From contig CAYVBR010000015.1 of NCBI GenBank assembly GCA_964449865.1, forward strand, positions 173,341 through 205,340: DNA of 32,000 nt. The letters run 5' to 3'. How positions within the stretch are numbered: the stretch's first letter is position 1; each line of letters opens with the position of its first letter. This stretch comes from an uncultured Candidatus Nitrosotenuis sp. (lineage in GTDB: Archaea; Thermoproteota; Nitrososphaeria; Nitrososphaerales; Nitrosopumilaceae). The notes beneath the pieces are model-generated. The model made no database searches, was not told the DNA's origin, and was given only the letters and a program-made list of their open reading frames with translations. Shown piece after piece: positions 1 through 13,261 of this stretch. A program made the position numbers and the translations under genes.

Positions 1-2000
1 ACAGACAGATGACTATAGTTCAGGCAAACGTTACTTTGCTTTACGAAAAAGCAGGGCAGGAATACGTCATAAACATGATTGATACTCCAGGCCACATTGA
101 CTTTACGGGAAGGGTAACTCGAAGCCTTAGGGCAATCGATGGCGCTGTGGTAGTATCTGACTCTGTAGAGGGAATCATGACTCAGACTGAAACCGTAACA
201 AGACAAGCACTGGAGGAGCGAGTCCGACCCGTTTTGTATATCAACAAAATCGACCGACTCATAAAAGAGCTAAGGCTTACTCCAGAAAAAATGCAAGAAT
301 GGCTAGTAAACATCATTACCACTTTTAACGGATTAATTGACACATACGCAGAACCCGAATACAAGGAGAAATGGAAGGTCTCAATTCAGGACGGCAGCGT
401 ATCGTTTGGCTCTGCAAAAGACAGGTGGGGCTTTAACATTGATATCATGAAAGAGAAAGGAATTTCATTTAAGGACATTTTCACTGCATATTCAGAAGGC
501 GGAAGCGTAGAAGATCTTGCAAAAAAGGCCCCGCTTGCAGAAGCAGTTCTGGGAATGGTCGTAAAACATCACCCACCACCACACATTGCACAAAAATACA
601 GAATTCCAAAAATCTGGAAAGGTGATCTGGATTCTGATATAGGCAAGGCGCTTTTGAATTGTGACGATACTGGTCCTGCAGTTATGATGATTGTAAACAT
701 GGCAATGGATCCTGCAGCTGGTCCTGTCGCAATAGGTCGACTGTTTGCCGGAACACTTCGAGACGGACAAACCGTAAATCTCATTGATACTAAGCGAGAG
801 GGAAAAATCCAATCTGTCAACTTTTTCATGGGCAACCAAAGAGAAATGGTCGGAGAACTTGGTGCCGGAAACATCCCTGCACTGCTTGGACTTACGGAAG
901 CTAGGGCAGGACAAACACTTTCAACTGTAAAAGAAGTTGCACTGTTTGAGGGAATCAAGTATGTGTCAGAGCCTGTGGTCCAGATAGCAGTCGAGGCGAA
1001 GCATCCAAAGGACTTGCCAAAACTAGTCGAGGCATTGCGAAGAATTACAATTGAAGATCCAAACCTGGTTGTCAAAATCAACGAGGAAAGCGGAGAAACA
1101 GTAATTGCCGGAATGGGCGTCTTGCACCTTGAAATCGCGGCATCCCTAATTGCCGACGCAGGCGTTCAGGTAGTCACATCGCAGCCTTTGATTAATTATA
1201 GAGAAACCATTCTGAGTGGAACTGATGCCGTCATGGCAAAATCGCCAAACAGGCACAACAAGATTTTCATGAGAGTGGAGCCACTTGAGCCAGAAATTGC
1301 AGACATGATACGAAGCGGCCAGCTTTCGGAAATGAAGGACAAAAAAGAAGTGGCTACAATTTTGCGATCAAAGGGCTGGGACTCTGACGTATCAAAGAAC
1401 ATCATGAAATTTGATCCTCGTGGAAATGTTATGATTAACGGAACAAAAGGTGTCCAGTTTATCCAAGAATCAACTGACTCTATCCTGTCTGGATTTGAGG
1501 ATGTGATGAAGGAGGGACCGCTTGCAAAAGAACAAGTGAGAAACTGCAAATTTACATTTACCCACTTTGTACCTCACGAGGACACTGCGCACAGAGGCCT
1601 CTCCCAACTGGGACCGGCGTCAAGACGCGCATGCATGGGTGCCATGCTAAAATCAAGCCCTATCCTGTTGGAGCCTCTTCTTGGAATCGAGGTTCGAGTT
1701 CCGCAAGACATGATCGGAAACGTTGCATCTGTCTTGTCTGGAAAAAGAGGCAAGGTACTTGATATGCAGCAAAAAGGAATCACAAGCATTGTTACTGGCG
1801 AAGTTCCAGCGTCTGAGACATTTGATTTGGCAGAAATAATGAGAGGCCAAACTGCCGGAAAGGCGATGTGGAACACCCACTTTAAGGCCTGGTCGCCAAT
1901 TCCAAAATCAATTCAGGCAACACTGATTGCAGATATCAGAAAGAGAAAGGGTCTAAGTCCAGAACCGCCAACTGCAGACGAGTTCATCGACAAAGAGTAA
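1..2000 (+). CDS. fusA: Translation elongation factor 2 (aEF-2), 5' end cut by window edge (codon phase starts at nt 3)
   Basis: GTPase motifs are present (DTPGHIDF, NKIDR). The diphthamide-site motif HEDTAHRGLSQ is in domain IV. The frame is open to the window start. The stop TAA at 1998..2000 lies inside the target-site duplication of the adjacent element. Confidence 0.95.
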   Translation, partial: RQMTIVQANVTLLYEKAGQEYVINMIDTPGHIDFTGRVTRSLRAIDGAVVVSDSVEGIMTQTETVTRQALEERVRPVLYINKIDRLIKELRLTPEKMQEWLVNIITTFNGLIDTYAEPEYKEKWKVSIQDGSVSFGSAKDRWGFNIDIMKEKGISFKDIFTAYSEGGSVEDLAKKAPLAEAVLGMVVKHHPPPHIAQKYRIPKIWKGDLDSDIGKALLNCDDTGPAVMMIVNMAMDPAAGPVAIGRLFAGTLRDGQTVNLIDTKREGKIQSVNFFMGNQREMVGELGAGNIPALLGLTEARAGQTLSTVKEVALFEGIKYVSEPVVQIAVEAKHPKDLPKLVEALRRITIEDPNLVVKINEESGETVIAGMGVLHLEIAASLIADAGVQVVTSQPLINYRETILSGTDAVMAKSPNRHNKIFMRVEPLEPEIADMIRSGQLSEMKDKKEVATILRSKGWDSDVSKNIMKFDPRGNVMINGTKGVQFIQESTDSILSGFEDVMKEGPLAKEQVRNCKFTFTHFVPHEDTAHRGLSQLGPASRRACMGAMLKSSPILLEPLLGIEVRVPQDMIGNVASVLSGKRGKVLDMQQKGITSIVTGEVPASETFDLAEIMRGQTAGKAMWNTHFKAWSPIPKSIQATLIADIRKRKGLSPEPPTADEFIDKE

Positions 2001-2003
2001 AAA
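1986..2003. repeat. Left copy of direct repeat / target-site duplication (atcgacaaagagtaaaaa)
   Basis: This 18-nt string is identical to 8519..8536. It covers the last four EF-2 codons (ATC GAC AAA GAG) plus the TAA stop. The final 5 A's overlap the first bases of the TIR, so the true TSD is 13-18 bp. Confidence 0.85.
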
Positions 2004-2037
2004 TAGTCACCCCCCTTCTGGTGCGTAAAAATCTGCA
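1999..2037 (+). repeat. Left terminal inverted repeat of casposon (39 bp, imperfect)
   Basis: The sequence is aaaaatagtcaccccccttctggtgcgtaaaaatctgca. The reverse complement of 8480..8518 is aaaaatagtctccccccactttacgcgtaaaaatctgca. About 32 of 39 positions match, with perfect outer 10 bp, a C6 run and an inner 14 bp. Confidence 0.85.
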
Positions 2038-2080
2038 TGAGTATCTTTTGAGAATCAGTCAACGGAATTCCAAAAATCAT

Positions 2081-2189
2081 GCATATAGAATTCTATATGC
2101 GTATTCTATATGCCTAGTTTGCAAATCCTATATGCCCAGATGATCAAACCTATAGGAATTCTATATGCGTGTCCTATATGCCTAGTTTG
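2081..2189. repeat. Subterminal iteron cluster: about seven copies of TYCTATATGC (one inverted, one degenerate), including a perfect 20-bp palindrome and a 34-bp direct repeat
   Basis: The palindrome gcatatagaattctatatgc is at 2081..2100. The 10-mer occurs at 2091, 2104, 2127, 2159 and 2172, plus an inverted copy at 2081 and a degenerate inverted copy at 2149. The 34-bp unit gaattctatatgcgtRtYctatatgcctagtttg is at 2088..2121 and 2156..2189, with 2 mismatches. Confidence 0.8.
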
Positions 2190-2246
2190 AGATTTTGTAG
2201 GTGTCAAAGGTATCAGTTCCAATGTGTGTCGTTTTGATGTGGGTTA

Positions 2247-2864
2247 CTAAAATTGTACAAGATCCAATTTATCGCCATTTTGCATCAACGTGTATTTTTT
2301 AGTGCCAGAGCTTTTTACTGATATCATATCTATGGCATCAAAGAGGATTTTCTTTTCCGCATCCGTTTTGCACAAACCACTGTAGAAATACCAAGCTAGT
2401 CCATCAACCATCATTTCTTCAAGAAAGGCTTTTCGCCATTCTTTTCCAGTCATAATATCCTCAATTTCCTGTTGAGTTTTCTGCTCCGCGTATAAGGGAT
2501 GTGGTAGTAACGATGCCAAAAGTTCCGTGATAGGGTAACTAGTAAATGAGAATTTACCTTTGGGAAGTTCTGCAGTTGTAGTTTTTGTGAGTATGCGTTC
2601 TAACTCCATTTCTGTTAATGCGTCAAAGAGAATTTTAAAATCCAATAGTGCTGACTCTGATTTTGCCCTCACTTCAGAAAAATATTTTGATAAATCTCTA
2701 TTTGTCCTTCGTTCCCATTTCTTCAATCCTGATAGTTTCTCGACTTGGTCTTTAGTCAAAAAGCCGTTTCTTCGTAATTCAAGTCGTTGTTTCGCTTTAT
2801 TCTGTAGTCGTTTCTTTTCATCTTGTGGTATTATTCGTAAATATTTGCGAATTTCATCATCCAT
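2247..2864 (-). CDS. Hypothetical protein, casposon-encoded (205 aa)
   Basis: This is a long ORF with a charged helical N-terminal half. It is divergent from the PolB operon across a 42-bp AT-rich spacer. I recognise no motif. Confidence 0.6.
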   Translation of the reverse strand: MDDEIRKYLRIIPQDEKKRLQNKAKQRLELRRNGFLTKDQVEKLSGLKKWERRTNRDLSKYFSEVRAKSESALLDFKILFDALTEMELERILTKTTTAELPKGKFSFTSYPITELLASLLPHPLYAEQKTQQEIEDIMTGKEWRKAFLEEMMVDGLAWYFYSGLCKTDAEKKILFDAIDMISVKSSGTKKYTLMQNGDKLDLVQF

Positions 2865-2906
2865 TTCGTATGATCAATTATCAATATTTCTAATTTATAT
2901 CATTTT

Positions 2907-3284
2907 ATGAAAAGATTAGAAACACTCAGAAACACGCTACAGAAAATTGATGACGAGATTCTAGACCTAGACAAATTCCGTGACACTCCAACTTTACGTA
3001 AATTCAGGCGTCAGTTGCAAGGAGAAGCAAGCGAAATCAGGGCTAAAATCGCAAAACTGGCAGAAACTCAGGAGCAAAAGAATACAGAACACCAAAAGAT
3101 CCTAGAAAGGGCAAGCAGAAACCGCAGTTCCAAGATGAGGCGAAATTGGAACTATCTACGAGCAATTCAGGCAAACTATTTTCCAAATCTTTCCTTGAAG
3201 GAAATCAGAAAACAGCATAAACTGCACAGGCAAGGTCTTGAATCATCAGTGTCAGACGTGGCTTGGAAAAACCCCAGCCCATGA
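2907..3284 (+). CDS. Hypothetical basic, coiled-coil-rich protein immediately upstream of PolB (125 aa)
   Basis: The ORF is rich in K/R/E/Q. Its TGA stop (3282..3284) overlaps an in-frame PolB ATG at 3281 (ATGA coupling). Confidence 0.6.
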   Translation: MKRLETLRNTLQKIDDEILDLDKFRDTPTLRKFRRQLQGEASEIRAKIAKLAETQEQKNTEHQKILERASRNRSSKMRRNWNYLRAIQANYFPNLSLKEIRKQHKLHRQGLESSVSDVAWKNPSP

Positions 3285-5152
3285 CTCCTTTTTTTCCAGT
3301 GTCAAAATCCAAGATCCTAGATAACATCAGAGTTATCAAACAGAACAGAAACCCAAACAATTCAAAACTGCGCAAAGTCGTTGCAATAGATACGGAGACT
3401 GAAAATGGCAATATTTTTCTCCTAGAGGATGATTCTGGAAGATTCCTAGATCAACACGATATCACGTTTGAAAATGTCGCAAGATTTCTTTTTCGATATG
3501 AGGGAACGTGGGTGTTTTGCTGGAATCTAGGCTATGATGCGATTTGTATTTTGAAACTGCTTCCAAGGCATATTTTGGACTCTTACAAGCACAACAGAAA
3601 ATTAAAGTTCAGATATTCTGGATATGAGATCAACTATATTCCAAACAAGCAACTAACATTACGAAAAGGAAAACATTCTGTCTCATTATACGACATGGCA
3701 CAATATTATGATAAAAAACCTCTTGCAAAGGCATTTTCTGAGAATTTCAATGAAATCTCCAAAGATTATCTGAAAATGAAGGAGTCAAGGCAGGACTTTA
3801 CATTATCACATTACCTGCGACACAAAAAACAGATTCGTGAATATTGCAAAATGGACTGTATTCTGACAAGGAAACTAGCTGAAAAATGGCTTGAAACTTT
3901 TTACAATGCGTTTGGGTTCTATCCAAGAAACTGGGTCAGTTCTGGATATTTGGGTGAAAAAGTGCTCATAAACAACGATATCTTTGTGCCTAGATTCAAC
4001 GAAGTTCCATATTTGGTTCAGGAACAGGCTTGGCTATCTTTCTACGGTGGACGGTTTGAACTGATCAAGCGCGGATTCATTGGCTATTGCTGTCTTTATG
4101 ATATCAATTCTGCATATCCTTTTGCACTGACTCAACTGCCTGATCTGACAAGAGGAAAATGGATTACTTCCAATAACATTCATCCAAAAACCAAAGTCGG
4201 ATTTTTTCACATCATAGCGGACATTAGTAATTCTGTCAAGGTATGTCCATTTCCGTTCCGAAACAAGAACAAGACCATAATCTACCCTTCGGGCAAATTT
4301 GAAACCTTTGTCACATTACATGAATTGTTGACAGTACAAAGAGATCCAAGAATCAAATACAAAATCTTGGAATCATACCAATTCATTCCAAACAAAAATT
4401 GTGGTTATCCATTCAGAGACTTTATTGGAATGATGTATGAGAAAAGGCTTGAATTAAAGAAACGGAATGATCCCCAGCAACAAGCACTCAAATTAATTCT
4501 AAATTCAATGTATGGGAAAACTGCACAGACTACAAATAATAGATTTGGAAACTTGTTCAATCCAGTAATTTCCTCATTTATCACAGGATTTGCAAGGGCA
4601 CAACTGTACCAGTTTGTCAGGGATAATAATTTGGAAAAAAATATAGTTGCATTCGCTACAGACTCTGTTGCAATTCAAAAGAAAATTCCTGATCTGAATA
4701 GTGAAAAGTTAGGAGAAATGAAATTAGACAAGGAATCTAATGATGCATACTATCTCTCAAACGGCTATTATCGGTTTAATGGAATTTGGAAGAATCGTGG
4801 AATCGGTAATGATCCGAGCGAAAAGAATGTCGAGATTGAGCACAAGGACACCATAGAAAACAAGGACGGTCAGTTGTACATAGAGGTAGAAACCACTCAA
4901 TTACAGCATCTGAAAAGTGCCATAATTCGCAATTTGCACAAGGACATAGGCAAGATTCGTACCTATCAAAGGAAGGTTTTCTTGAATTCAGATAGAAAAC
5001 GACTCTGGAATAGGGATCTGGAACGCATTGACGATGGAATATGGTGCGATTCTGCTCCTATTAACATGAGTGTTGACGGTGAGATTATTTCTATACAATC
5101 GGAGTTTGAGTGGATTGATGATGAAAAGTATGTGCCAGAGAGCGATCTTTAA
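3263..5152 (+). CDS. polB: Protein-primed family-B DNA polymerase (pPolB); alternative coupled start at 3281
   Basis: Exonuclease motifs are Exo I AIDTETE, Exo II WNLGYDAICIL and Exo III YCKMDCILT. Polymerase motifs are A (YDINSAYPFAL), B (KLILNSMYGKTAQ) and C (FATDSV). Confidence 0.88.
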   Translation: MEKPQPMTPFFPVSKSKILDNIRVIKQNRNPNNSKLRKVVAIDTETENGNIFLLEDDSGRFLDQHDITFENVARFLFRYEGTWVFCWNLGYDAICILKLLPRHILDSYKHNRKLKFRYSGYEINYIPNKQLTLRKGKHSVSLYDMAQYYDKKPLAKAFSENFNEISKDYLKMKESRQDFTLSHYLRHKKQIREYCKMDCILTRKLAEKWLETFYNAFGFYPRNWVSSGYLGEKVLINNDIFVPRFNEVPYLVQEQAWLSFYGGRFELIKRGFIGYCCLYDINSAYPFALTQLPDLTRGKWITSNNIHPKTKVGFFHIIADISNSVKVCPFPFRNKNKTIIYPSGKFETFVTLHELLTVQRDPRIKYKILESYQFIPNKNCGYPFRDFIGMMYEKRLELKKRNDPQQQALKLILNSMYGKTAQTTNNRFGNLFNPVISSFITGFARAQLYQFVRDNNLEKNIVAFATDSVAIQKKIPDLNSEKLGEMKLDKESNDAYYLSNGYYRFNGIWKNRGIGNDPSEKNVEIEHKDTIENKDGQLYIEVETTQLQHLKSAIIRNLHKDIGKIRTYQRKVFLNSDRKRLWNRDLERIDDGIWCDSAPINMSVDGEIISIQSEFEWIDDEKYVPESDL

Positions 5153-5176
5153 AAAAAACCAACGCTAATAGAAGTC

Positions 5177-6151
5177 ATGTCACAAAGTTGGGTGCATCAA
5201 TCTTGTCACGAAGTTTATAACTATTTGAAAACAATAGTGACACCAACATTACATATAGAAATCTTAGCCAATTCTAAATCTATTTGCACTATAGATGGAA
5301 TCCAAATAACAAACCAACATACACTCACATTAGCAAACTATGATGAAGTTCATGATGAAGTACTACAAGCCTTAAAATATGTTGGTGCGATTCCATTAAA
5401 TTTTTCTTTTATTGATAAAAATTCATTTAGTAAAGTTGAAAAATTAACAATTGCTGAAGATTTTGTGACATGGTACAACACACAGACATCGAAAAAAATG
5501 ATATTCATTGATACCAACATTATGCTACACCGAATTTTTTCATCTCTAGAACTTGCATTAGGTAGTTCTTTAGCTAGTAAAGATTTTGAAATCCCTAGAT
5601 TAACAATTTTAGAAATGGAGAGACAAGCAAATGCAAAAAACAACGAAGGAACATCCACAACTAACCACAAAGTTGGTCTAAAGAAAAGAAAAACATTGTT
5701 AGGATTTAGTGAACTATTATATCTTAAAAACAAAGGTGCTCAACACATGCCAGAACTGCCTTTGGAAACTTTAACTGGATTTAGTAATATTTCTGGAGAT
5801 GGGTTTACTGACGCGTGGATTAGACGAGAAATTAAGGATCGGAGGTTTTTCTTAATGCGTGCAGGTTCTGCTACGTTTCAGCTTTTTTTTACAGCTGATA
5901 TGGTCAACGCACTTTCAGCACTCGCTGAAGGGATTGATACTGTATACATTTCACCAGTACCGGAATGGGAAAAACATATTCAACAAATTAATTTGTCTCA
6001 AATCAGTCAATTGATTTGTTTTTTGGCTACATTACTTAATGACATAACAATAAACGTGAATTCGAACAAATCAAACATTAAAGGATTTTGGAGTGGAATA
6101 ACTACGTCTAACATAATAAATCGAGATATTCTTGTTCAAGCAATACCTTAG
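5177..6151 (+). CDS. Hypothetical protein with PIN-like nuclease signature (324 aa), casposon-encoded
   Basis: Acidic residues are spaced as in PIN domains: MIFIDTNIM, then ILEMERQ, then FTDAWIRREI, then FFTADMVNAL. The ~105-aa N-terminal extension is unrecognised. Confidence 0.6.
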   Translation: MSQSWVHQSCHEVYNYLKTIVTPTLHIEILANSKSICTIDGIQITNQHTLTLANYDEVHDEVLQALKYVGAIPLNFSFIDKNSFSKVEKLTIAEDFVTWYNTQTSKKMIFIDTNIMLHRIFSSLELALGSSLASKDFEIPRLTILEMERQANAKNNEGTSTTNHKVGLKKRKTLLGFSELLYLKNKGAQHMPELPLETLTGFSNISGDGFTDAWIRREIKDRRFFLMRAGSATFQLFFTADMVNALSALAEGIDTVYISPVPEWEKHIQQINLSQISQLICFLATLLNDITINVNSNKSNIKGFWSGITTSNIINRDILVQAIP

Positions 6152-6171
6152 CTAAAAATTTGTGGGAGATC

Positions 6172-6191
6172 TATGAAATGAGAATTTCATA
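6172..6191. terminator. Hairpin between convergent casposon genes (8-bp stem tatgaaat/atttcata, loop gaga)
   Basis: A perfect inverted repeat sits in the 41-bp gap between the 3' ends of the ORFs at 5177..6151 (+) and 6193..6846 (-). A terminator function is inferred only. Confidence 0.3.
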
Positions 6192-6192
6192 A

Positions 6193-6846
6193 CTACAGAT
6201 TTGCCACATCTTTGCAATACTGTTCTGTATCTCCGATATCTTTTCTATTCTCAAATTCATTTTTTAATGCTGTAAAATGTCTTAACGTTTTCTTATTCAA
6301 TTTTTGTCTGGTTTCTATTTCAACTCTTAAGGTTTTCCAATCCCTTACTATCATTTCACCGTACGTATCAAAGAACAACTCTTTGTTAATTAATCCATTC
6401 AATACTAGAACTGACACTTGATCTAACGAAGACAGTACGAGATCTACATTATCTTCCAAATCGTCAGTGTCAACGGCATTTTTAAAAACAATATCTAATT
6501 TTGCTTTTTTCAGTCTACAATATTCGTTATGAATCCGTGTCCTCGCTTTACGAACATCTGCCCTACTCAATAACTCAAAAACTTTTGTAAGAGTATCTTT
6601 TTGCAATTGTTTGTATTTGAAATGATTATTTGTTATTGCGATCATTATTGATGCAATTATTCCAAACCCAGCTAACGCCGCAGCTAATTTCTTATCATAA
6701 GATAACATATTTTCAGGCAATACGACAATAGAGATAGCAAAAAGAACGGCAAGTATGCCGACATTTCTCATATCTTTCTTAAACGCATCTCTAATCTTGG
6801 TAAATCCGTTTGAAAATTCTATGTGTGAGCTTTGTTTCTCTCTCAT
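6193..6846 (-). CDS. Membrane-anchored hypothetical protein (217 aa, two N-terminal TM helices), casposon-encoded
   Basis: The hydrophobic segments are GILAVLFAISIVVL and LAAALAGFGIIASIMIAI. The C-terminal helical domain carries the pattern LDQVSVLVLNGLINKELFFDTYGEMI. Confidence 0.65.
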   Translation of the reverse strand: MREKQSSHIEFSNGFTKIRDAFKKDMRNVGILAVLFAISIVVLPENMLSYDKKLAAALAGFGIIASIMIAITNNHFKYKQLQKDTLTKVFELLSRADVRKARTRIHNEYCRLKKAKLDIVFKNAVDTDDLEDNVDLVLSSLDQVSVLVLNGLINKELFFDTYGEMIVRDWKTLRVEIETRQKLNKKTLRHFTALKNEFENRKDIGDTEQYCKDVANL

Positions 6847-6922
6847 TTACAATCCAGTATTATCATCATCCTATAATTCAACTTGCCTACTGTTACTAAA
6901 CTAAATAGTTACAATATTCTTT

Positions 6923-7972
6923 CTAGGTAGCAATCAAAAAATTATGAATTGTAATTTTTACTATGGTAATTTCCTGACACAATGACATTCCGTTTTCTTT
7001 TTTCAATCCATGTTTGAACTTATACGGTCTTTCAGACTGGAGTTTCCTTTCCAATACTTCCAAAAACCTACGAATCAAATCGGTATCCATCACCACATTT
7101 CCGTCTTTAGTATGGGTGTAATCCTTGAATCTGATTCCATTTCTGTCCAGAATTGAAAATTTGTAAACTGAATGCTCAACAAGCCACCTAAAAGGTTCAA
7201 TCAGATCATACACCAAAGCCTGAAATGAGGTATCTGGTTTGTGATAGAATCCATAGTAAGGATCTAATCCTAAACCGTTGACAAACTTGGCAATCTCTCC
7301 TGCCAAAACGGTATAACCGTAATTCAAAAGGGCATTGATAATATCTGAGGCATAGCGCTTTGAATTGACAAGACCGCCGCCCCGCCTTGACTGAAAACTA
7401 TGTCTTTCTGGAATTAATTTAGCATAGTTTAGAAAATAATACCTTCCACTTCCCGCCTCTATTTTGATCAATTCCTTAAGATTTGTCTTGGAATCAATTT
7501 GGGAATGATATTGCTCTAGTTTTGAAATCCCATCTAGTTCCGGATTTTCTAAAGACTTGAAAAAGTTGATTTGTGCTTGAATCTTTTCCTTTAGAATCCA
7601 TTTTTGTAAATGCAAGACTTTGACAGGATCCCGAAAAGTGTCGTATTGATCCATTCGATATTTTATTGCAGTATTGGAAACCATTCCACCATTCATGAAT
7701 GATACTGGATTGCCGTAAGTATCGGTTAGAATAACGTTGATGTTGTTTTGACTTAGTAATGAAATGGCTTCAGTTGAAACATAGCCTTTTCCAGAAATCA
7801 CGATCTTCTCGTATGGGATTTTAGACACAAACCACTCTTCCTTTTCAGAGATTCCAGTTATGTCATTTTGACCGTTTTTTAGAATCAGATGATTGTCTTT
7901 TACGTTAATTGAGATTCCATAGCCACGAAGGAGTTTTACGTTGTAGTGATTTCGTTGTCCTTTTTCAGTCAT
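6923..7972 (-). CDS. cas1: Cas1-family integrase (casposase), 349 aa
   Basis: Cas1 signature blocks are present: IEAGSGRYYF (catalytic Glu), NALLNYGYTVL, GLDPYYGFYH (catalytic His) and LVYDLIEPFR (catalytic Asp/Glu pair). The N-terminal beta-rich domain has YGISINVKDNHLILKNG. Confidence 0.92.
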   Translation of the reverse strand: MTEKGQRNHYNVKLLRGYGISINVKDNHLILKNGQNDITGISEKEEWFVSKIPYEKIVISGKGYVSTEAISLLSQNNINVILTDTYGNPVSFMNGGMVSNTAIKYRMDQYDTFRDPVKVLHLQKWILKEKIQAQINFFKSLENPELDGISKLEQYHSQIDSKTNLKELIKIEAGSGRYYFLNYAKLIPERHSFQSRRGGGLVNSKRYASDIINALLNYGYTVLAGEIAKFVNGLGLDPYYGFYHKPDTSFQALVYDLIEPFRWLVEHSVYKFSILDRNGIRFKDYTHTKDGNVVMDTDLIRRFLEVLERKLQSERPYKFKHGLKKENGMSLCQEITIVKITIHNFLIAT

Positions 7973-8436
7973 TTTTGTTTATAGTTGGATATTTCTATCC
8001 AAGCTACATCACCGTATTTTTCTTGAGCTTTCTTGATGTATTCAATAACTTCAGTATTTTCTTTAATTAATTGTATGACCCACCCAAATGCTTGTTCTGC
8101 CATCGTTGACGTGAGTGTTCCTTGCTTGATCAAAATAGCTACGGTTTCTACTTCATTTAAAAAATTTTCAAGATCCCTTTCAGTGACGGAATTCTCGCCG
8201 TTTTGCAAAACTTTTTGTTTTAATCGAATCGCTTCAATGATTCTCTTTCCTTCGTCTGATCTGTAGATTGATTCATTCAACCTAAGTAAAAGATCCGCCT
8301 CTGTCGATTTTCTAAATAAATCGAATGAATCTTTAGCTATTTTGTTTGATTTTCGTGTTTGACGATCTGATAGAAATACGCCTAACAAAGCTACAGAGAT
8401 TCCTACAATTGCAGCATAAATTTCCCAATCTGCCAC
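7969..8436 (-). CDS. Membrane-anchored hypothetical protein (155 aa), translationally coupled to cas1
   Basis: The N-terminal TM helix is IYAAIVGISVALLGVFL. The stop overlaps the cas1 ATG (ATGA at 7969..7972). The C-terminal pattern LNEVETVAILIKQGTLTSTMAEQAFGWVI resembles that of the ORF at 6193..6846. Confidence 0.65.
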   Translation of the reverse strand: MADWEIYAAIVGISVALLGVFLSDRQTRKSNKIAKDSFDLFRKSTEADLLLRLNESIYRSDEGKRIIEAIRLKQKVLQNGENSVTERDLENFLNEVETVAILIKQGTLTSTMAEQAFGWVIQLIKENTEVIEYIKKAQEKYGDVAWIEISNYKQK

Positions 8437-8479
8437 GAAATAAGATTACTTTCAGTGTCTAAAAGATTTACGACAGCCC

Positions 8480-8518
8480 TGCAGATTTTTACGCGTAAAG
8501 TGGGGGGAGACTATTTTT
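8480..8518 (-). repeat. Right terminal inverted repeat of casposon
   Basis: Its reverse complement matches 1999..2037 at about 32 of 39 positions. It is followed directly by the right TSD copy. Confidence 0.85.
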
Positions 8519-8536
8519 ATCGACAAAGAGTAAAAA
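8519..8536. repeat. Right copy of direct repeat / target-site duplication
   Basis: The string atcgacaaagagtaaaaa is identical to 1986..2003. It is a non-coding duplicate of the EF-2 terminus. Confidence 0.85.
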
Positions 8537-8907
8537 GACAAGCCCCCTTCATTATGGTAATTCTGTAACTTGATTCATAAAACCAAACGATATGATTGTG
8601 AGGTTCCATCTAATATTTAGTAAAAGAATTTCCAATGCCGAATGAAAGTTGAAGTCGGTATTGATCCACGATTAACAGAAAAAATACTGCAATCTGATCT
8701 CTTGGGGTTCACAGAAAACCGCAGAGTAGTCTTTCTGATGTATATTTGACTGGAGTCGTTTTCACACAATCGTATTTTTCAAATTGAAGATGATCAAAAC
8801 AATATAGATTTTGACAAAACTTGAATTTTTTACCATTGTTTATTGTCGGCAAAGATATTGAGTCGTGTTGACAGCGGTATAAGTTTCATGGATACTTCTA
8901 TTCAACA

Positions 8908-9195
8908 TTATTGATTAATGTCTGAGATAGTTGATGCAAACACCTTTCCGCTTTTAGTCAAGGCAACGTTAATCTTGGAAGACTCTATTTTAGATTCAAC
9001 GAGTCCTTTTTTCTCTAGCCAAACAATGTGTTTTGCAAGTCTCGCGTAATTTAGATTGGCTTCAAGGGACAACTCCGTCTTGCCTTCAGCACCTTTATCT
9101 GCCATAATTTGCATGATACGTGATAGAACAGTCATACTTGGTTTAAAATCAGGTACTGGCTTCTTACTTTCAATGTTTTCTTGTTTTTTTATCAT
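8908..9195 (-). CDS. Small winged-helix DNA-binding protein (95 aa), paralog 1
   Basis: The layout is wHTH-like: LSRIMQIMADKG...LNYARLAKHIVWLEKKGLVES...INVALTKSGK. Residues around 46-80 are identical to the ORF at 11589..11864. Confidence 0.75.
   Translation of the reverse strand: MIKKQENIESKKPVPDFKPSMTVLSRIMQIMADKGAEGKTELSLEANLNYARLAKHIVWLEKKGLVESKIESSKINVALTKSGKVFASTISDINQ
8955..9060 (-). repeat. 106-bp perfect inverted repeat, arm 1 (inside wHTH paralog 1)
   Basis: By my reading, the reverse complement of 8955..9060 equals 11718..11823 exactly. Similarity decays sharply outside the block. Confidence 0.8.
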
Positions 9196-9218
9196 TCACT
9201 AACTTATTGTTAGTAAAG

Positions 9219-9262
9219 CTATTAAGCCACGCTGACATTTGAGTTATGTTCATTGACATGTG
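9219..9262 (-). promoter_or_regulatory. Shared promoter/operator module, copy A (upstream of wHTH paralog 1)
   Basis: The minus strand reads catgtcaatgaacataactcaaatgtcagcgtggcttaatag. The TATA-like ttaatag starts 30 nt before the ATG. About 41 of 49 positions match copy B with identical spacing. Confidence 0.6.
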
Positions 9263-9425
9263 TGTTAGGATCATGGACGAACTTGTCACCATTATGGACA
9301 AAAATACGGTTGTTGAATCGACATTACGAAGAAGGTAAAACCACTATGAAGTAAAACTATTTTTGGTATGCCTCTGAACATCCATCTACTGTAAAGTTAA
9401 TTTCTTAGATGGGATAATTGCGTTT

Positions 9426-9893
9426 ATGCAAAACGAGCATCGACAAAGTTACGGCATCGTTTACAAATCATTGGTGTTTTTTCTTATTCTGTATATGCCC
9501 GTTCTGTACACTCACGAATTAGGGCATTCTTTGGTATGTGTGTTTGAAGGTGGCCATGTTGAAACTCTGTACGTATCATGGCTCGGCGAGGGTAACAGCA
9601 GCTGTGTGCCAGAACCAGATGATCAATTTCTGTACCATCTGTCTGGAGGGGCATTTGCCAGCATGTTATCTGCCATACTGCTAATCGTATGGAAAACAAT
9701 TCCAAATTACGTCAAGATAGTTTCAATAACCTTTGCGGCAAGTCAGGGCATAAATGCGCTAATTGAGGCCTTTGTACACGTTAGTTACATCAATGATCAT
9801 TTTATGCGCTACACCGTATTTAACGTGATTACTTTTGCGATATTTACTGGTCTTATGATTGCGTATATTCGGCAACACTACAAAACTCTCTGA
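9426..9893 (+). CDS. Small polytopic membrane protein with HExxH motif (putative membrane metalloprotease-like), 155 aa
   Basis: An HELGH motif follows the first TM helix (YTHELGHSLV). At least four hydrophobic segments are present. The family is not identified. Confidence 0.55.
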   Translation: MQNEHRQSYGIVYKSLVFFLILYMPVLYTHELGHSLVCVFEGGHVETLYVSWLGEGNSSCVPEPDDQFLYHLSGGAFASMLSAILLIVWKTIPNYVKIVSITFAASQGINALIEAFVHVSYINDHFMRYTVFNVITFAIFTGLMIAYIRQHYKTL

Positions 9894-10040
9894 TTTTCAA
9901 AATAAATTTGACCCTGTTTGTGTAATGTTAGAAGTAAAATCCTACTATACTACATTATCAATTCTCTAGTTTCTTACTCTGCGGCACTTTCTTACTGCCT
10001 TTTAAAATATCCGTTGACAGATAAGTACACAATATTGATG

Positions 10041-10084
10041 GATCTGTCAATGAAACTAACACAAATGTAAGCGCAGCTTAATAG
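10041..10084 (+). promoter_or_regulatory. Shared promoter/operator module, copy B (upstream of the DUF3494-like gene)
   Basis: The sequence is gatctgtcaatgaaactaacacaaatgtaagcgcagcttaatag. The TATA-like box is 29 nt upstream of the ATG at 10107. An imperfect dyad attgatgga|tctgtcaat spans 10034..10051. Confidence 0.6.
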
Positions 10085-10106
10085 ATTTACTAATGATATT
10101 TTTTCA

Positions 10107-11018
10107 ATGACTAAAAATAACATCACAAATTATTTTGTAATGTCTGTACTGATATTCTCAGCTACTGGTATGTTACAAAATAATGCTTTTGCAGCACCGA
10201 CGCTTGGAACCGCTAACAATTTCGCAGTCCTAGGCGGCACGACAGTAACCAATACTGGCGCAACTATCGTCATAGGCGATCTTGGTGTCAGTTCACCTGG
10301 CGTCGCATGCACTGGATTTGTTGGATGTACAACAACTGGATTGGGAACCGTATCTGGAACCATACAGGTAGGTACTCCGATTGCAAATCAGGCTCATGCT
10401 GACGCAGCAACTGCATATGGATCACTCATTGGAACCGCATGTACGGTCAATGAACCAGCTGTTGCAGACATAGGCGGACAAACACTTACACCTGGAGTCT
10501 ATTGTTTCCCATCCTCAGCAGCCATAACTGGAAATCTTACTCTTAGTGGCAACGGAGTTTACATCTTCAAAATAGGAAGCACTCTTGTCACTGCAGCAAG
10601 TAACAGTAATGTAATACTGACAAATGGTGCCACAGCAAACAACGTCTTTTGGGCAGTGGGAAGTTCCGCAACTCTTGGAACTAACTCTATTCTCAAAGGA
10701 ACCGTAATTGCTTACACCTCAATCACCTCAACTGCTGGAGCAGCAGTAGACGGTAGACTGCTTGCGATAAATGGTGCAGTCACACTAGATACCAACAGAA
10801 TTACTATAGTTGGTCCTGGTACTGGCGATACAGGCGGACATAATGACGACGATTGTATTGGAGGACATGGTAATGGACACGGTAATGGACATGACAAAGA
10901 CCACGATGGAAAAGACCATGATGGCAAAGACCACAATGGAAAAGACCATGATGGAAAAAACCACAACGACAAAGACAATCACGGTAAAGATGCAGGCAAA
11001 AAATCAGGCAAAAACTAA
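10107..11018 (+). CDS. Secreted ice-binding-like (DUF3494-type) beta-solenoid protein with His/Asp/Lys-rich C-terminal tail
   Basis: A signal peptide ends in NAFA. The N-terminal signature [32 protein letters not shown], and later [15 protein letters not shown], are typical of DUF3494. The tail is [43 protein letters not shown]. Confidence 0.75.
   Translation: [303 protein letters not shown]
10861..10992 (+). repeat. In-frame tandem 15-bp repeats (aaagaccaYgatgga) encoding (K-D-H-D/N-G)n
   Basis: About six degenerate 15-bp units are visible, preceded by ggtaatggacaY x2. They also generate several spurious alternative-frame and antisense ORFs. Confidence 0.75.
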
Positions 11019-11588
11019 ACCCCCCTCTTTTTTTAATTATGTTTGATTGAGTCATATTATTTAGCAACCCCTAAAAGTTAGTGTCGAACATACATCTTGT
11101 TGGCAACTGGCTCTGGCTGTGCTAAGTGCAGACTCGTTCACAATGGATTGGTAGAACCAATCTGCAAGTGTAGATGTCATGTGGGACTGGCCACAGATCG
11201 GATTGAACTTGCAGCAAAATACATCGTGGAAGGCTCTAAGAGATGACTGAATCTAGAATTCGGCTTTTATTTGTTAACTGACAATGTCACTAAAAATTTG
11301 GCTTTGTTATGGTTCCGCACCAAAGATCAAGAAGATGATCAAGGAATCGTGTGTTGTTCATTTTGGAGTCTTTACTTCGTGCGTCCTTTGAGTCTTTTAC
11401 AAATCTCACAAAAGTTTTTACTTTTACGCTAATGGTTTTGTATTCTTTTCTGGGCAGGCTACAACCATTTGAGTATGCTATATAAGGATTGGTACGAATT
11501 CAGACACCTTTTTTCCGTTGCCGTGATATTCGCATTGCTACCTTAAATAGGATTGTCCCGTACAATTAATGGAGTAAGGTAGGAAATT

Positions 11589-11864
11589 ATGACACAAATA
11601 AGAATTGAAAGCACAACATTGGATCAGGACTTTGAGCCTAGCATAAAAACTCTGTCACGCATTATGCAAACCCTGACTGATAATGGCTCTGGCGGCAAGA
11701 CTCAGATATCACTTGATGCCAATCTAAATTACGCGAGACTTGCAAAACACATTGTTTGGCTAGAGAAAAAAGGACTCGTTGAATCTAAAATAGAGTCTTC
11801 CAAGATTAACGTTGCCTTGACTAGAAATGGCAAGGTATTTGCATCAATGATTTCAAAAGCGTAG
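11589..11864 (+). CDS. Small winged-helix DNA-binding protein (91 aa), paralog 2
   Basis: The wHTH layout matches the ORF at 8908..9195. The central/C-terminal segment is identical (LNYARLAKHIVWLEKKGLVESKIESSKINVALT) and the N-terminus has diverged. Confidence 0.75.
   Translation: MTQIRIESTTLDQDFEPSIKTLSRIMQTLTDNGSGGKTQISLDANLNYARLAKHIVWLEKKGLVESKIESSKINVALTRNGKVFASMISKA
11718..11823 (+). repeat. 106-bp perfect inverted repeat, arm 2 (inside wHTH paralog 2)
   Basis: It is identical to the reverse complement of 8955..9060. Confidence 0.8.
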
Positions 11865-11882
11865 ATATCAATAAAACTGATA

Positions 11883-11926
11883 GATCTGTCCATAAAACTT
11901 ACGACAATGTAAGCGCAGCTTAATAG
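11883..11926 (+). promoter_or_regulatory. Shared promoter/operator module, copy C (upstream of the beta-helix repeat gene)
   Basis: The sequence is gatctgtccataaaacttacgacaatgtaagcgcagcttaatag. The 37-nt offset between gatctgtc and the TATA-like box is the same as in copies B and D. The ATG follows 26 nt after the TATA start. Confidence 0.6.
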
Positions 11927-11945
11927 ATTTGTTAGTACTAAACTA

Positions 11946-12704
11946 ATGTTGACAAACATCAAGCAATTTCTGATATTTTCTGTTTTGGTTACCGTGATTT
12001 CTGTTATAGCCTTTACTACTCAAAACGTAGTGGCATTAACTATTGATGGCAGAACTGCGTGTGAATCTGCACCTATCAATGGAGTTTGGGTTCCACTCGA
12101 TAGAACCTGCACTGTTACGACTCTTGTGATTGGTTCTGTTGACGGATTAACTATTCCAACTGACGTGGTTCTAAATGCTATGGCAATAATTAACAGCGGT
12201 GTCATCACTAATAATGGCCAAGTTAACGTTGCATCTGGTGGTGTCATAACAACCTCTGGCAAGATTAACAATTATGGAATTATTGGTATTGATGATGGTA
12301 CGATAACAAACAGCGGTCAATTTGTAAATATTGGCATCGTCGATTCGTCTGGAACAATTACAAATGGTCAGACGGGTGTCATGTTCATTATGGGCAGTAT
12401 AATTAACGACGGTGTCATCACCTCGTCTGGAAATATAGCCGTAAACAGCACTGGCATACTAGTCAATAATGGCGCCATGATCAATACGCTGAATATGATT
12501 AACGACGGTGTCATCATTACGTCTGGTACATTTACCAACAGCGGCCCAGTTACAAATATCGGTGATATTTGGAGCTCAGGCCTCGTCGTTAATAATAATT
12601 CAATTATTAATCCTGGCAACATATACAATCTGTGCGGTGGAACAGTCACTGATTCCGGAACAATAGCCGTAAATGCGGTAATTGCCTGTGTAGACCTGCC
12701 TTAA
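11946..12704 (+). CDS. Secreted repeat protein, probable parallel beta-helix (252 aa)
   Basis: An N-terminal signal/anchor is present (FLIFSVLVTVISVIAF). There are many short G-x-I-T-N-x-G / INN-x-G repeats, for example SGVITNNGQVNV, GGVITTSGKINN, DGTITNSGQFVN and SGTITNGQTGV. Confidence 0.7.
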   Translation: MLTNIKQFLIFSVLVTVISVIAFTTQNVVALTIDGRTACESAPINGVWVPLDRTCTVTTLVIGSVDGLTIPTDVVLNAMAIINSGVITNNGQVNVASGGVITTSGKINNYGIIGIDDGTITNSGQFVNIGIVDSSGTITNGQTGVMFIMGSIINDGVITSSGNIAVNSTGILVNNGAMINTLNMINDGVIITSGTFTNSGPVTNIGDIWSSGLVVNNNSIINPGNIYNLCGGTVTDSGTIAVNAVIACVDLP

Positions 12705-12850
12705 GGAATATGTTTTTCTAATACAAAAATTGCTTCTGACTCCGAATTAATTCTATGACTGCCTGATCTCGTGCAACTTGGATCATAGGACTGGATAATG
12801 ACACTAACTAAAATTTACAATATTAAATAACCATCCCACCCAAAATTGGC

Positions 12851-13261
12851 ATGTCACAAGTTTGGCTAGGCAGAATCTATCTAAAAGAAGAGGGTGGATA
12901 TGAAATTATTTTACGTGCCTTGGGCCATTACAGAAAAAGATTAAAGTCAATCGGAAAGTCCCCCGAACTAAAGGATGCGCCAATGTTTGCAACAATAGTT
13001 ATCTCTGAGGCAAGCAAGATTGGGCCTCAAATCGACCCCGCAATATCAAAAATAAAAAATGCGCTGGAGCATCCAGAAATGCTATCTGAACTGCAGGCAG
13101 ATGTTCCGTTGTATGAAAAAGCGCTAAATTGTTACGAATCTGACATCAAACGAGCGCAAAACGAAGAGTTCTATTCTAACCTGCTATCTGGAAATGATTA
13201 CGTGGCCACTGATTACGATAACATCAAAACAGCGCTTGAAAAAATAAGCCAGTTCTCTTAG
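12851..13261 (+). CDS. Hypothetical protein (136 aa)
   Basis: The ORF has plausible composition but I recognise no motif. Its 3' end overlaps the convergent neighbour by 4 nt. Confidence 0.55.
   Translation: MSQVWLGRIYLKEEGGYEIILRALGHYRKRLKSIGKSPELKDAPMFATIVISEASKIGPQIDPAISKIKNALEHPEMLSELQADVPLYEKALNCYESDIKRAQNEEFYSNLLSGNDYVATDYDNIKTALEKISQFS

Follow-up and report, generated by a model that had tools for sequence, protein, structure and literature searches.

Family 1 casposons have been known since 2014, and their casposase has been characterized biochemically (PMC6614799, PMC8464041). The family is thaumarchaeal and is defined by a protein-primed family B polymerase (pPolB), insertion at the gene of elongation factor aEF-2, terminal inverted repeats (TIRs), and a target site duplication (TSD) (PMC4046053, PMC6563490); PMC6614799 likewise documents this definition and the EF-2 target. 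The casposase of NitAR1-C1 from Ca. Nitrosopumilus koreensis AR1, an element near-identical to NitSJ-C1, was studied in vitro (PMC6614799, PMC8464041), and its 13-bp TSD, ATTGATAAAGAGT, was defined experimentally (PMC8464041). A conserved small gene upstream of pPolB was proposed as a terminal-protein candidate (PMC4046053), and the published cargo nucleases are of the OLD, NERD, HNH, Cas4, and HEPN types (PMC6563490).

We analyzed a stretch of 32,000 nucleotides (the window) of the chromosome of a Nitrosotenuis-like ammonia-oxidizing archaeon; with high confidence, it carries an intact family 1 casposon (Table 1). The element is a further example of a known casposon family, not a new kind of element. 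A preliminary description of the window had judged it a probable member of this family, and every part that it listed for the 6.5-kb block at the aEF-2 3' end was recovered at the positions given, including the Cas1 and protein-primed PolB profiles and genuine TIRs and TSD, with neither CRISPR nor cas2. The GC content is 35.5% in the element versus about 40% in the flank, and all seven open reading frames (ORFs) are intact and closely packed, with overlapping start and stop codons.

Table 1. Positions of the casposon, its genes, and its target site in the window
Feature	Position	Strand	Remarks
aEF-2 gene	9..2000	+	N-terminus truncated by window edge; element integrates at its 3' end ("leader" side)
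Left TSD copy (probable), ATCGACAAAGAGT	1986..1998	+	13 bp; last four EF-2 codons and stop-codon T; exact repeat
Casposon proper (probable limits)	1999..8518		6520 bp; bounded by TIRs, between the 13-bp TSD copies
Left TIR, AAAAATAGTCACCCCCC...GCGTAAAAATCTGCA	1999..2037	+	First two A's finish the EF-2 TAA stop
Subterminal iteron cluster	2081..2181		Non-coding; six CTATATGC, five direct and one inverted
p205	2247..2864	-	Divergent from polymerase operon; 42-bp AT-rich intergenic region
p125	2907..3284	+	Small, basic (pI 10.4); directly upstream of pPolB, ATGA overlap
pPolB	3281..5152 (ORF from 3263)	+	PF03175; PHROG 11768; motifs in text
p324, PIN-domain nuclease-like	5177..6151	+	Small N-terminal alpha/beta domain
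DUF4760 protein	6193..6846	-	217 aa; PF15956, E=5.5e-12; downstream of cas1, same strand
Cas1 (casposase)	6923..7972	-	349 aa; PF01867; compact, without extra HTH
Second DUF4760 protein	7969..8436	-	155 aa; PF15956, E=4.4e-6; stop overlaps cas1 start (ATGA)
Right TIR	8480..8518	-	Minus-strand reading AAAAATAGTCTCCCCCC...GCGTAAAAATCTGCA
Right TSD copy (probable), ATCGACAAAGAGT	8519..8531	+	13 bp; exact repeat
Solo TIR-like sequence, AAAAAGACAAGCCCCC...	8532..8570	+	Left-end orientation, after right TSD

Target site, termini, and mobility

The ORF preceding the element contains all EF-2/EF-G Pfam domains (GTP_EFTU, EFG_II/III/IV/C), and its product is 100% identical to a 730-residue protein (P0124) and 89% identical to the EF-2 of Ca. 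Nitrosotenuis aquarius. The host is nearest to Nitrosotenuis, nearer than to Nitrosopumilus. The C-terminus, ...ADEFIDKE, is the same as in uninterrupted orthologues, and the naive 3' end is known from locus L008, where the orthologue ends FIDKE-TAG.

The duplication of the EF-2 terminus, as first described, is present as an 18-bp direct repeat, ATCGACAAAGAGTAAAAA, in two exact copies (1986 to 2003 and 8519 to 8536), and it is non-random by shuffling (any match in 0 of 100 shuffles), but the functional TSD most likely comprises only its first 13 bp. From the sequence alone, 13 bp and anything up to 18 bp are indistinguishable; a junction after 13 bp is indicated by the symmetry of the TIRs (AAAAA.../...TTTTT), both here and in a sister casposon (L009), and the element proper would therefore span 1999 to 8518. 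Compared with the N. koreensis TSD, ATCGACAAAGAGT is identical at 11 of 13 positions and keeps the essential A1, A11, and T13, and both differences are silent, at third positions of the codons for I-D-K-E.

The TIRs, described as 39 bp long, were found as an inverted repeat of 40 nt (1998-2037 and 8480-8519; 83% complementary), and realigning 1999-2037 with the reverse complement of 8480-8518 gave 33 matches out of 40. The terminal 17 nt contain one mismatch and the inner 15 nt are identical, with a diverged block of 7 to 8 nt between them. An AAAAA-N5-6-CCCCC(C) terminus is also found in the relatives L009, L013, L016, L017, L020, and L022. Inward of the left TIR, six CTATATGC matches fall within 100 bp (chance expectation, 0.67) and include a perfect palindrome, GCATATAGAATTCTATATGC; the motif occurs nowhere else in the 32 kb. 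The subterminal iterons of the preliminary description are thus present at the left end but absent at the right end, and no counterpart was found in relatives.

The solo TIR-like sequence after the right TSD was most likely left by an older casposon, and the present element would then have inserted next to it. The corresponding flank in sister genomes contains, in this order, a TIR, a HEPN_AbiV gene, and a cas1 fragment (first 32 codons); the naive site L008 is without the solo relic. The sister casposon L009 (GCA_964616415.1, contig CAZTUP010000006.1; 8.4 kb), which is apparently undescribed, is missing from L010-L012, with sequence identity of about 98% on both sides of the site. Its presence and absence at one site in such similar genomes indicate that the lineage moved recently and, with respect to the concern that all related genomes might carry the same block without TIR or TSD, that the sister element is instead polymorphic at the same site.

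A family 1 casposon by descent that is now immobile, either as a fixed, decaying insertion or as genes retained by the host, is a possible but rather unlikely alternative. It would agree with the divergence of the TIRs and their mismatch block, with the casposon relics that are common at the EF-2 locus, and with the occupancy of the site: every recovered metagenome contig carries a 100% identical element at the same position, the search for this exact host turned up neither an empty site nor an alternative one, and the contigs with an identical EF-2 or Cas1 are all occupied. The empty-site junction string put forward in the preliminary description was absent from JGI metagenomes; that string itself includes the relic of the older casposon end. 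However, immobility is at odds with the seven intact, tightly packed ORFs, the conserved Cas1 catalytic residues and polymerase motifs, the single difference within the terminal 17 nt of the TIRs, the fact that the last few end nucleotides suffice for the N. koreensis enzyme, and the recent mobility of the sister element.

For an intact casposon, integration steps can be proposed from what is known biochemically of the N. koreensis family 1 casposase and replication steps from the polymerase family. The casposase would bind the 3' ends of the element (...ATTTTT-3'), and two transesterifications would join them to both chromosome strands at the borders of ATCGACAAAGAGT, a target preceded by a putative TTC/TTT "leader" in the last EF-2 codons; gap repair would then produce the 13-bp duplication. 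Because the cut would fall after the stop-codon T, the first two TIR nucleotides, AA, would restore TAA and leave EF-2 unaltered. Insertion would be polar, next to EF-2, so a new copy would push the older decayed end downstream. The element might copy itself from its TIRs by its own pPolB, with a terminal protein as primer; by position, p125 is the candidate for that protein. To our knowledge, no casposon has yet been shown to excise.

Gene content

The polymerase, described as protein-primed with Exo I-III and Pol A/B/C motifs, matches the protein-primed PolB profile of Pfam (PF03175, E=3.1e-24) and a PHROG profile (11768, DNA polymerase, E=1.7e-62), and its motifs were located (Exo I DTE, Exo II NLGYD, Exo III YCKMD, Pol A DINSAYP, Pol B KLILNSMYG). 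Motif C reads FATDS instead of DTDS, a variant shared by all of the family 1 casposon polymerases examined. Translation probably starts at the ATG at 3281, which overlaps the upstream stop codon as ATGA. The upstream gene product, p125, has homologues directly upstream of pPolB in L009, L014, L021 (N. devanaterra), L023, L024, L026, L030, L033, L036, L037, L093, and L095, and this position makes it a terminal-protein candidate. No fusion to PolB was found in 55 representative p125 clusters, which are all small proteins. For the "three small conserved genes" of the original family 1 description, a clear homologue is present here for only one. The divergent p205 has no match in Pfam, PHROG, PADLOC, or NCBIfam and is 25% identical to p212, which is equivalently placed in the sister casposon.

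The p324 protein matches the PADLOC CARF_PIN profile (E=6.5e-9) in its PIN part only, and 7 of the 10 members of its family match PIN_4 (PF13638). The family is rare (10 homologues in 5.8 billion proteins), and the two homologues with recoverable context (three loci) all lie within Cas1- and pPolB-encoding elements. The AlphaFold2 model (pLDDT 84.6) is most similar in the PDB to the cA4-binding SiRe_0806 (Foldseek E=1e-6); D112, T113, N114, E146, E148, D212, and D241 are invariant. By hydropathy, the 217-residue DUF4760 protein has a hydrophobic, transmembrane-like segment and the 155-residue one an N-terminal hydrophobic segment; one homologue of the former adjoins a family 1 Cas1 in L035. 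Together with the solo TIR relic, the features specific to this copy are its accessory parts: the PIN-like nuclease, the two predicted DUF4760 membrane proteins, and the left-end iterons.

No function is assigned to p205, p125, or the two membrane-like DUF4760 proteins, four of the seven proteins encoded, and family 1 polymerases are sister to those of the haloarchaeal viruses His1 and His2 (PMC4046053), as might be expected of an integrated His1/His2-like virus or plasmid that uses Cas1 as its integrase and is no transposon. This reading is very improbable given an element of only 6.5 kb, no structural, packaging, or capsid match in PHROG, and a gene set and termini as in described casposons.

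Cas1 is full length with its catalytic blocks, as noted earlier (PF01867, E=9.5e-50; TIGR00287, E=1.8e-45), and has more than 1100 homologues; E172, H244, D256, and E259 are invariant across relatives. Its closest relative of solved structure is 6OPM (E=1e-30), which we take to be the Methanosarcina mazei family 2 casposase. In a neighbor-joining tree built without the N. koreensis casposase, the suggested phylogenetic check, it falls into a clade whose loci have pPolB and/or EF-2 and which includes the Ca. Nitrosotalea devanaterra locus L021, with array-linked Cas1 elsewhere. In agreement with the preliminary description, an array search and a screen of 30 further ORFs detected no CRISPR array and no cas2, cas4, or other cas gene in the 32 kb. 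That cas1 is a stranded CRISPR adaptation gene that has lost its array and happens to adjoin an unrelated pPolB element is the least probable reading and already contradicted: generic Cas1 profiles, CRISPR subtype models included, do match well, but cas1 and pPolB share one TIR/TSD-bounded unit, the two occur together in more than 12 independent loci, and arrays were seen only beside distant bacterial Cas1 (25-32% identical).

Comparison with described systems

The element shares with NitAR1-C1 a compact Cas1 without HTH (349 residues here, 347 in NitAR1-C1), a protein-primed PolB immediately preceded by a small conserved gene, TIRs, and insertion at the very end of aEF-2, into a homologous 13-bp target after TTC/TTT with A1, A11, and T13 conserved. 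An ambiguity common to both is an apparent repeat (18 bp here, 22 bp in NitAR1-C1) that exceeds the real TSD. They differ in the TIR 3' end (...ATTTTT here, ...TTCTA in NitAR1-C1), in the "ruler" at TSD positions 5-8 (ACAA versus ATAA), in the Nitrosotenuis-like host genus, and in the cargo of a PIN-like nuclease and two DUF4760 proteins.

The sister casposon L009 has the same EF-2 site, 13-bp TSD, and AAAAA...CCCCCC terminus, a TIR relic after the right TSD, a 90% identical Cas1 also beside the right end, and a p125-pPolB operon with a divergent p205-like gene. However, pPolB identity is only 57% and the polymerase module has the opposite orientation, indicating that the elements are mosaics. 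L009 further differs in having perfect inverted repeats over its terminal 30 nt, in being demonstrably polymorphic, and in carrying a BubE/ThiF-DUF6791/Multi_ubiq ubiquitin-like module and a TPR protein in place of the PIN and DUF4760 cargo.

Locus L021 is one of the two published casposons of Ca. Nitrosotalea devanaterra, NitDev-C1/C2 (PMC6563490); identity is 55% for Cas1, 51% for pPolB, and 34% for the p125-like gene, with FATDS in common. Variable, element-specific nuclease cargo is also a trait of the casposons of the 2019 thaumarchaeal survey (NitNF5-C1/C2, NitEve-C1), and tandem or re-used EF-2 sites, as at this locus, are described for NitNF5-C1/C2; the survey reports no casposon from Nitrosotenuis and mentions neither PIN-type nor DUF4760 cargo (PMC6563490).

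Family 2 casposons (AciBoo-C1, M. mazei; 6OPM) likewise have a Cas1-family integrase, TIRs, tandem arrays, a TSD (about 14 bp), and site-specific insertion in which the leader side is recognized, whereas their Cas1 C-terminal HTH, RNA-primed-type PolB, HNH and HTH core genes, and tRNA gene targets all have no equivalent in the present element. With the CRISPR-Cas adaptation module it shares the integrase fold, the catalytic residues, polar "leader"-adjacent insertion, and duplication of a short "repeat"; a series of insertions would accordingly build leader-TSD-insert-TSD-relic arrays. Unlike that module, the element has no Cas2, short-spacer array, or interference genes, and the inserted DNA is the integrase-encoding element itself.

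Ends of the element, its target site and its class

Judged by its sequence, the block behind aEF-2 is an intact family 1 casposon in a Nitrosotenuis-like lineage, the host EF-2 being 89% identical to that of Ca. Nitrosotenuis aquarius and about 82% identical to those of Nitrosotalea and Nitrosopumilus. No casposon from such a lineage was reported in the literature searched. The features matching family 1 are the array-free Cas1, the DNA_pol_B_2 polymerase, the compact casposase, the terminal inverted repeats (TIRs), the target site duplication (TSD), the thaumarchaeal host with its EF-2 target and the grouping of Cas1 in a distance tree. The preliminary description had read the block as a probable family 1 casposon, correctly, with the family, the target and the integrase chemistry being already established. 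All open reading frames of the element are intact and closely packed.

Coordinates of the features of the element and the surrounding chromosome
Feature	Position	Strand	Remarks
aEF-2, C-terminal 663 residues	9..2000	+	all EF-2/EF-G domains matched
Exact 18-bp repeat ATCGACAAAGAGTAAAAA	1986 and 8519
Terminal inverted repeats	1998-2037 and 8480-8519		40 nt, 83% complementary
Element proper (probable extent)	1999..8518
CTATATGC iterons	2081-2181		six copies, left end
p205	2247..2864	-	205 aa
p125	2907..3284	+	125 aa, basic, pI 10.4
pPolB	3281..5152	+	protein-primed PolB family
p324	5177..6151	+	PIN-like
DUF4760 protein	6193..6846	-	217 aa
Cas1	6923..7972	-	349 aa
DUF4760 protein	7969..8436	-	155 aa, stop overlaps cas1 start
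Segment without counterpart in sister genomes	8532-12850		about 4.3 kb
Winged-helix gene	8908-9195	-	HTH_45 / Sso10a-like
Inverted repeat of 228 nt	8923-9150 and 11628-11855		84%
GCGCAGCTTAATAGATTT-ending sequence	9205-9258, 10031-10098 and 11873-11930		54-58 nt
15-nt tandem repeats	10876-10995
TIR-like string AAAAACTAAACCCCCCTCTTTTTTT	11010-11035
Winged-helix gene	11589-11864	+	HTH_45 / Sso10a-like
Conserved 136-aa gene	12851-13261
FN3-repeat protein gene	14283-17666		1127 aa, 306-nt tandem repeats

The block follows right behind the EF-2 stop, and its ends are formed by the inverted repeats. Aligned base by base, the two arms (39-40 nt) are identical at 33 of 40 positions, with one mismatch in the outer 17 nt, an identical inner 15 nt and a diverged block in between. 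The 18-bp repeat is found only twice in the 32 kb, and 100 shuffles yielded not a single match. The TIRs and the duplicated EF-2 terminus of the preliminary description were both confirmed. The GC content of the block is 35.5%, compared with about 40% in the downstream chromosome and 45% in EF-2.

The family 1 casposase of Ca. Nitrosopumilus koreensis generates a 13-bp TSD (5'-ATTGATAAAGAGT-3') and requires a TTT leader and the bases A1, A11, and T13; the apparent 22-bp repeat in the N. koreensis genome is longer than the real TSD (PMC8464041). In the window, the TSD candidate consists of the leading 13 bp of the 18-bp repeat, ATCGACAAAGAGT, directly preceded by TTC. It is identical to the N. 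koreensis TSD at 11 of 13 positions, keeps A1, A11, and T13, and both mismatches are synonymous third positions within the same EF-2 codons (I-D-K-E-stop). With a 13-bp TSD, the element ends are symmetric (AAAAATAGTC...GACTATTTTT); the same holds for the sister casposon L009 (GCA_964616415.1, contig CAZTUP010000006.1), whose terminal 30 nt are perfect inverted repeats. This symmetry and the N. koreensis experiment argue for a TSD of 13 bp rather than 18 bp, a length on which the extent of the element proper in the table is based. The insertion point then lies directly behind the stop-codon T of EF-2; this T is part of the TSD, and TAA is restored by the two A's with which the TIR begins. The window EF-2 ends with ...FIDKE, like the uninterrupted orthologue L008, where the stop is TAG. 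The TIR terminus motif is common to the element and its relatives, and the 3'-distal part of aEF-2 is the commonest documented target of family 1 casposons (PMC6563490).

The Cas1 protein matches the Pfam Cas_Cas1 family (PF01867) with residues 18-308 (E=9.5e-50) and TIGR00287 (E=1.8e-45), and the polymerase was likewise recovered by profile search, as the preliminary description had called both genes. No second Pfam domain was found in Cas1, which is compact, without the C-terminal HTH of family 2, and close in length to the 347-aa N. koreensis casposase. All relatives in an alignment reaching down to 58% identity keep residues E172, H244, D256, and E259. The best relative of solved structure is 6OPM (E=1e-30), which we take to be the Methanosarcina mazei casposase. 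More than 1100 homologues were found at E<1e-10, the best 120 of them each at least 58% identical.

Searching one genome per species with the Cas1 profile returned two groups. Group 1 (42-86% identity, with the best species representative at 86%) has loci often carrying pPolB, a p125 gene and/or EF-2, and contains a locus (55% identity) of Ca. Nitrosotalea devanaterra, for which two family 1 casposons are published (PMC6563490). Group 2 does not exceed 38% identity. CRISPR arrays in the scanned loci are found only beside distant bacterial Cas1 proteins (25-32% identity). In a neighbor-joining distance tree of 60-odd sequences, drawn without support values and leaving out the N. koreensis casposon NitAR1-C1, the window Cas1 groups with those of L009 and L015 inside the pPolB/EF-2-linked clade, and the array-linked Cas1 proteins stand apart, a result in favour of the preliminary description.

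A second thaumarchaeal Cas1 clade (L038-L049, L053, L062, and L077), about 30% identical to the window Cas1, occurs in Nitrosopumilus, Nitrosarchaeum, and Nitrosotenuis MAGs, with three copies on chromosome OZ252092.1. Neither pPolB nor a CRISPR array was detected within 10 kb of its members, and the clade may represent another casposon family or solo cas1 genes.

The statement that the 32 kb hold no CRISPR array and no further cas gene was confirmed. TRF and a spaced-repeat scan found no array in the window, the 30 other ORFs have no cas domains, and cas2 is absent; Rfam and tRNA (ARAGORN) scans of the window gave no matches. In a CRISPR-Cas adaptation module, cas1 lies beside cas2 and an array, whereas the window cas1 has neither. 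Family 2 casposons are characterized by an HTH-fused Cas1, a PolB of the RNA-primed type, HNH and HTH core genes, and a tRNA target. In contrast, the window element has no HTH or HNH domain and a DNA_pol_B_2 polymerase, and the window lacks a tRNA gene.

Polymerase operon and cargo

The polymerase matches DNA_pol_B_2 (Pfam ID PF03175, the organellar/viral protein-primed type) with E=3.1e-24 and PHROG 11768 with E=1.7e-62, whereas PF00136 reaches just 0.0024. A sequence search of the PDB gave no match. This family membership suggests that pPolB would work by protein priming. The motifs Exo I, Exo II, Exo III, Pol A, and Pol B are canonical, and motif C reads FATDS (residues 455-463), with Ala replacing the first Asp of the canonical DTDS. 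Each of the 13 related casposon polymerases covering motif C has FATDS, including those of L009, L023, L024, L026, L030, L033, L036, L037, L093, L095, and the Ca. Nitrosotalea devanaterra locus (L021), so it is a family trait rather than a lesion and, being conserved, presumably functional.

Family 1 casposons are described with three (to four) small conserved genes of unassigned function beside polB. The sub-lineage of the window element, L009, and L095 has one small gene upstream of pPolB and one divergent gene, and no counterparts of the p111 and p80 genes of L093 were detected in the window element. The stop of the upstream gene, p125, overlaps the pPolB ATG at 3281 (ATGA), and homologues occupy the same position in 12 other loci. 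By its position, p125 is a terminal-protein candidate, a role that is unsupported, since the homologues among 1.84 billion representatives are all small proteins and none is a p125-PolB fusion. The divergently transcribed p205 has a sole match, its L009 equivalent p212, at 25% identity.

On the cas1 strand, cas1 is flanked by the two DUF4760 genes, the 155-aa one upstream, and both proteins have a strongly hydrophobic segment. The p324 protein matches the PADLOC CARF_PIN profile with its PIN part only (E=6.5e-9). Its family has just ten members in 5.8 billion proteins, seven of which match Pfam PIN_4, and D112-T113-N114, E146, E148, D212, and D241 are invariant in the family alignment. The genomic context was recoverable for two members (three loci), all within Cas1+pPolB elements. 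The structure most similar to the AlphaFold model (pLDDT 84.6, pTM 0.84) is SiRe_0806 of Sulfolobus islandicus, a cA4-binding CRISPR-ancillary protein (Foldseek E=1e-6, TM 0.49). The N-terminal domain of p324 comprises 90 residues, below the size of a CARF domain, and gave no sequence match. Our literature search found no paper on SiRe_0806 or on DUF4760 function. The nucleases in the 2019 survey of thaumarchaeal casposons are OLD, NERD, HNH, Cas4, and HEPN; PIN is not listed (PMC6563490), whereas the window element carries the PIN-like p324. We see a slim chance that p324 is a casposon-linked nuclease not recognized before, of the PIN_4 type, with intact acidic residues and a small novel N-terminal domain. 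It would tie casposons to CRISPR-associated machinery in a second way if its role were to process casposon ends or excise the element, or if it served as an effector of addiction or defence. We know of no casposon for which the excision step is known.

Under the nuclease reading of p324, the CTATATGC iterons would be candidate binding sites for an element-encoded factor controlling replication or transposition. They include one 20-nt perfect palindrome, and the rest of the window has no further copy (0.67 expected). The subterminal iterons of the preliminary description are thus present at the left end and missing at the right. None were found in relatives; the repeats in L009, L013, and L014 were rejected as iterons, as they are coding repeats of TPR and Gly/Asn-rich proteins. 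Features particular to the window copy are p324, the left-end iterons, and the mosaicism described below.

The chromosome around the element

The other window ORFs encode, among others, an ice-binding-like protein, a large FN3-repeat protein, MsrA, TatC, a flavoprotein, and a CBS-domain protein. The sister genomes have nothing that corresponds to the segment separating the casposon from the conserved 136-aa gene, and in them this gene follows about 1.7 kb behind EF-2; the region downstream of EF-2 is a variable island, beyond the casposon alone. The arms of the 228-nt inverted repeat correspond to two paralogous winged-helix genes, which enclose 2.5 kb with a membrane protein and the ice-binding-like secreted protein. 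Several metagenome contigs end exactly inside this repeat (window 8984). The bracketed segment could be a surface-protein cassette that inverts or varies in some other way.

The three copies of the sequence ending in ...GCGCAGCTTAATAGATTT lie directly upstream of the starts of the first winged-helix gene, the ice-binding-like gene, and a haemagglutinin-repeat-like gene, resembling a shared promoter region. The 15-nt tandem repeats encode the (H/N)DGKD-rich C-terminal tail of the ice-binding-like protein. The stop codon of this gene lies within the TIR-like string AAAAACTAAACCCCCCTCTTTTTTT; neither a TSD-like sequence nor a partner arm was found, and the string may be due to chance, a terminator, or another old relic. 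The stretch at 14.3-17.7 kb (GC 50%, strong negative GC skew) was considered as an rRNA operon and rejected, as it has no Rfam match and is the gene of a protein with eight fibronectin type III domains.

Sister elements, mobility and re-insertion beside EF-2

An identical Cas1 and a 100% identical element are found in several Logan metagenome assemblies, at the EF-2 site every time. No empty site was found for the window's own host, neither by exact EF-2 and Cas1 look-ups, which returned occupied contigs only, nor by a junction search in JGI. The predicted empty junction reads ...GACGAGTTC-ATCGACAAAGAGT-AAAAAGACAAGCCCCC, and the string ATCGACAAAGAGTAAAAAGACAAGCCCCC, which the preliminary description had expected at empty sites, had no match in JGI metagenome contigs. 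Contigs with the flanking p155 gene stop at the 228-nt inverted repeat, short of the EF-2 site, and no record of the flanking winged-helix protein was found.

The genome of L009, with an EF-2 90% identical to that of the window, shares both the insertion site and the TSD, and its casposon measures 8.4 kb. Three metagenome contigs (L010-L012) encode an EF-2 protein identical to that of L009 without its casposon, and they align to L009 at about 98% before the insertion site and about 99% behind it. This is a clean presence/absence polymorphism, and the L009 lineage has therefore moved recently. The polymorphism of this sister, whose Cas1 is 90% identical, is only indirect evidence that the window element may have an active integrase and be mobile. 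The two elements are mosaic, with only 57% identity of pPolB and an inverted polymerase module, and the best matches of the window pPolB sit in other elements, indicating that recombination shuffles the casposase and polymerase modules independently of each other.

The cargo of L009 (12192-20620) includes BubE, ThiF/DUF6791, and Multi_ubiq, a ubiquitin-like conjugation module of a type linked to antiviral defence, and is thus defence-type cargo on a casposon. L009 also encodes a 414-aa protein with eight 102-nt TPR-like repeats.

Behind the right TSD of the window element, the sequence AAAAAGACAAGCCCCC... resembles a left TIR. The "empty" sites of L010-L012 have this feature as well, with a HEPN_AbiV gene and the initial 32 cas1 codons behind it, and are therefore decayed older casposons. 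The reading of this AAAAA..CCCCC flank as a generic terminator was rejected, given the HEPN gene and the cas1 fragment behind it in the sister loci and its absence from the naive orthologue L008. The locus L022 (about 1100-5400) consists of EF-2, a TSD, an approximately 3.2-kb casposon with interrupted cas1, a TSD, a TIR-bounded remnant of about 1 kb, and the degenerate TSD' ATTGACAAAGAGT, and is a natural leader-repeat-insert-repeat series. The relic flank, L010-L012, L022, and the naive L008 together indicate that new copies enter beside EF-2 and displace older ones downstream, an arrangement like that of the published tandem NitNF5-C1/C2 (PMC6563490). The cargo is freely exchanged, with PIN and DUF4760 in the window, the Bub module in L009, and HEPN in the relic.

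Behind the observed anatomy, homologies, and sister-element polymorphism, we propose that the casposase would join the 3'-OH ends of the TIRs to both strands where the 13-bp site begins and ends, and that repair would then duplicate this site, as suggested by the N. koreensis biochemistry. Going by the polymerase family and the 2014 model (PMC4046053), replication could be protein-primed and start at the TIRs, and p125 would be the terminal-protein candidate by position.

The CRISPR adaptation machinery is presumed to descend from casposons. To our knowledge, few intact family 1 casposons have been described so far, all from a handful of cultured thaumarchaea, and with the window element a Nitrosotenuis-like lineage joins the range of the family. 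Across genera, the 13-bp EF-2 target is kept together with its critical bases, while the TIR termini differ. The current picture of casposons is unchanged, and the window element provides material to test it. Together with L009, it is a clean natural case of recent polar re-insertion beside an older relic, and this EF-2-proximal insertion formally resembles, and follows the same logic as, the leader-proximal spacer acquisition of CRISPR.
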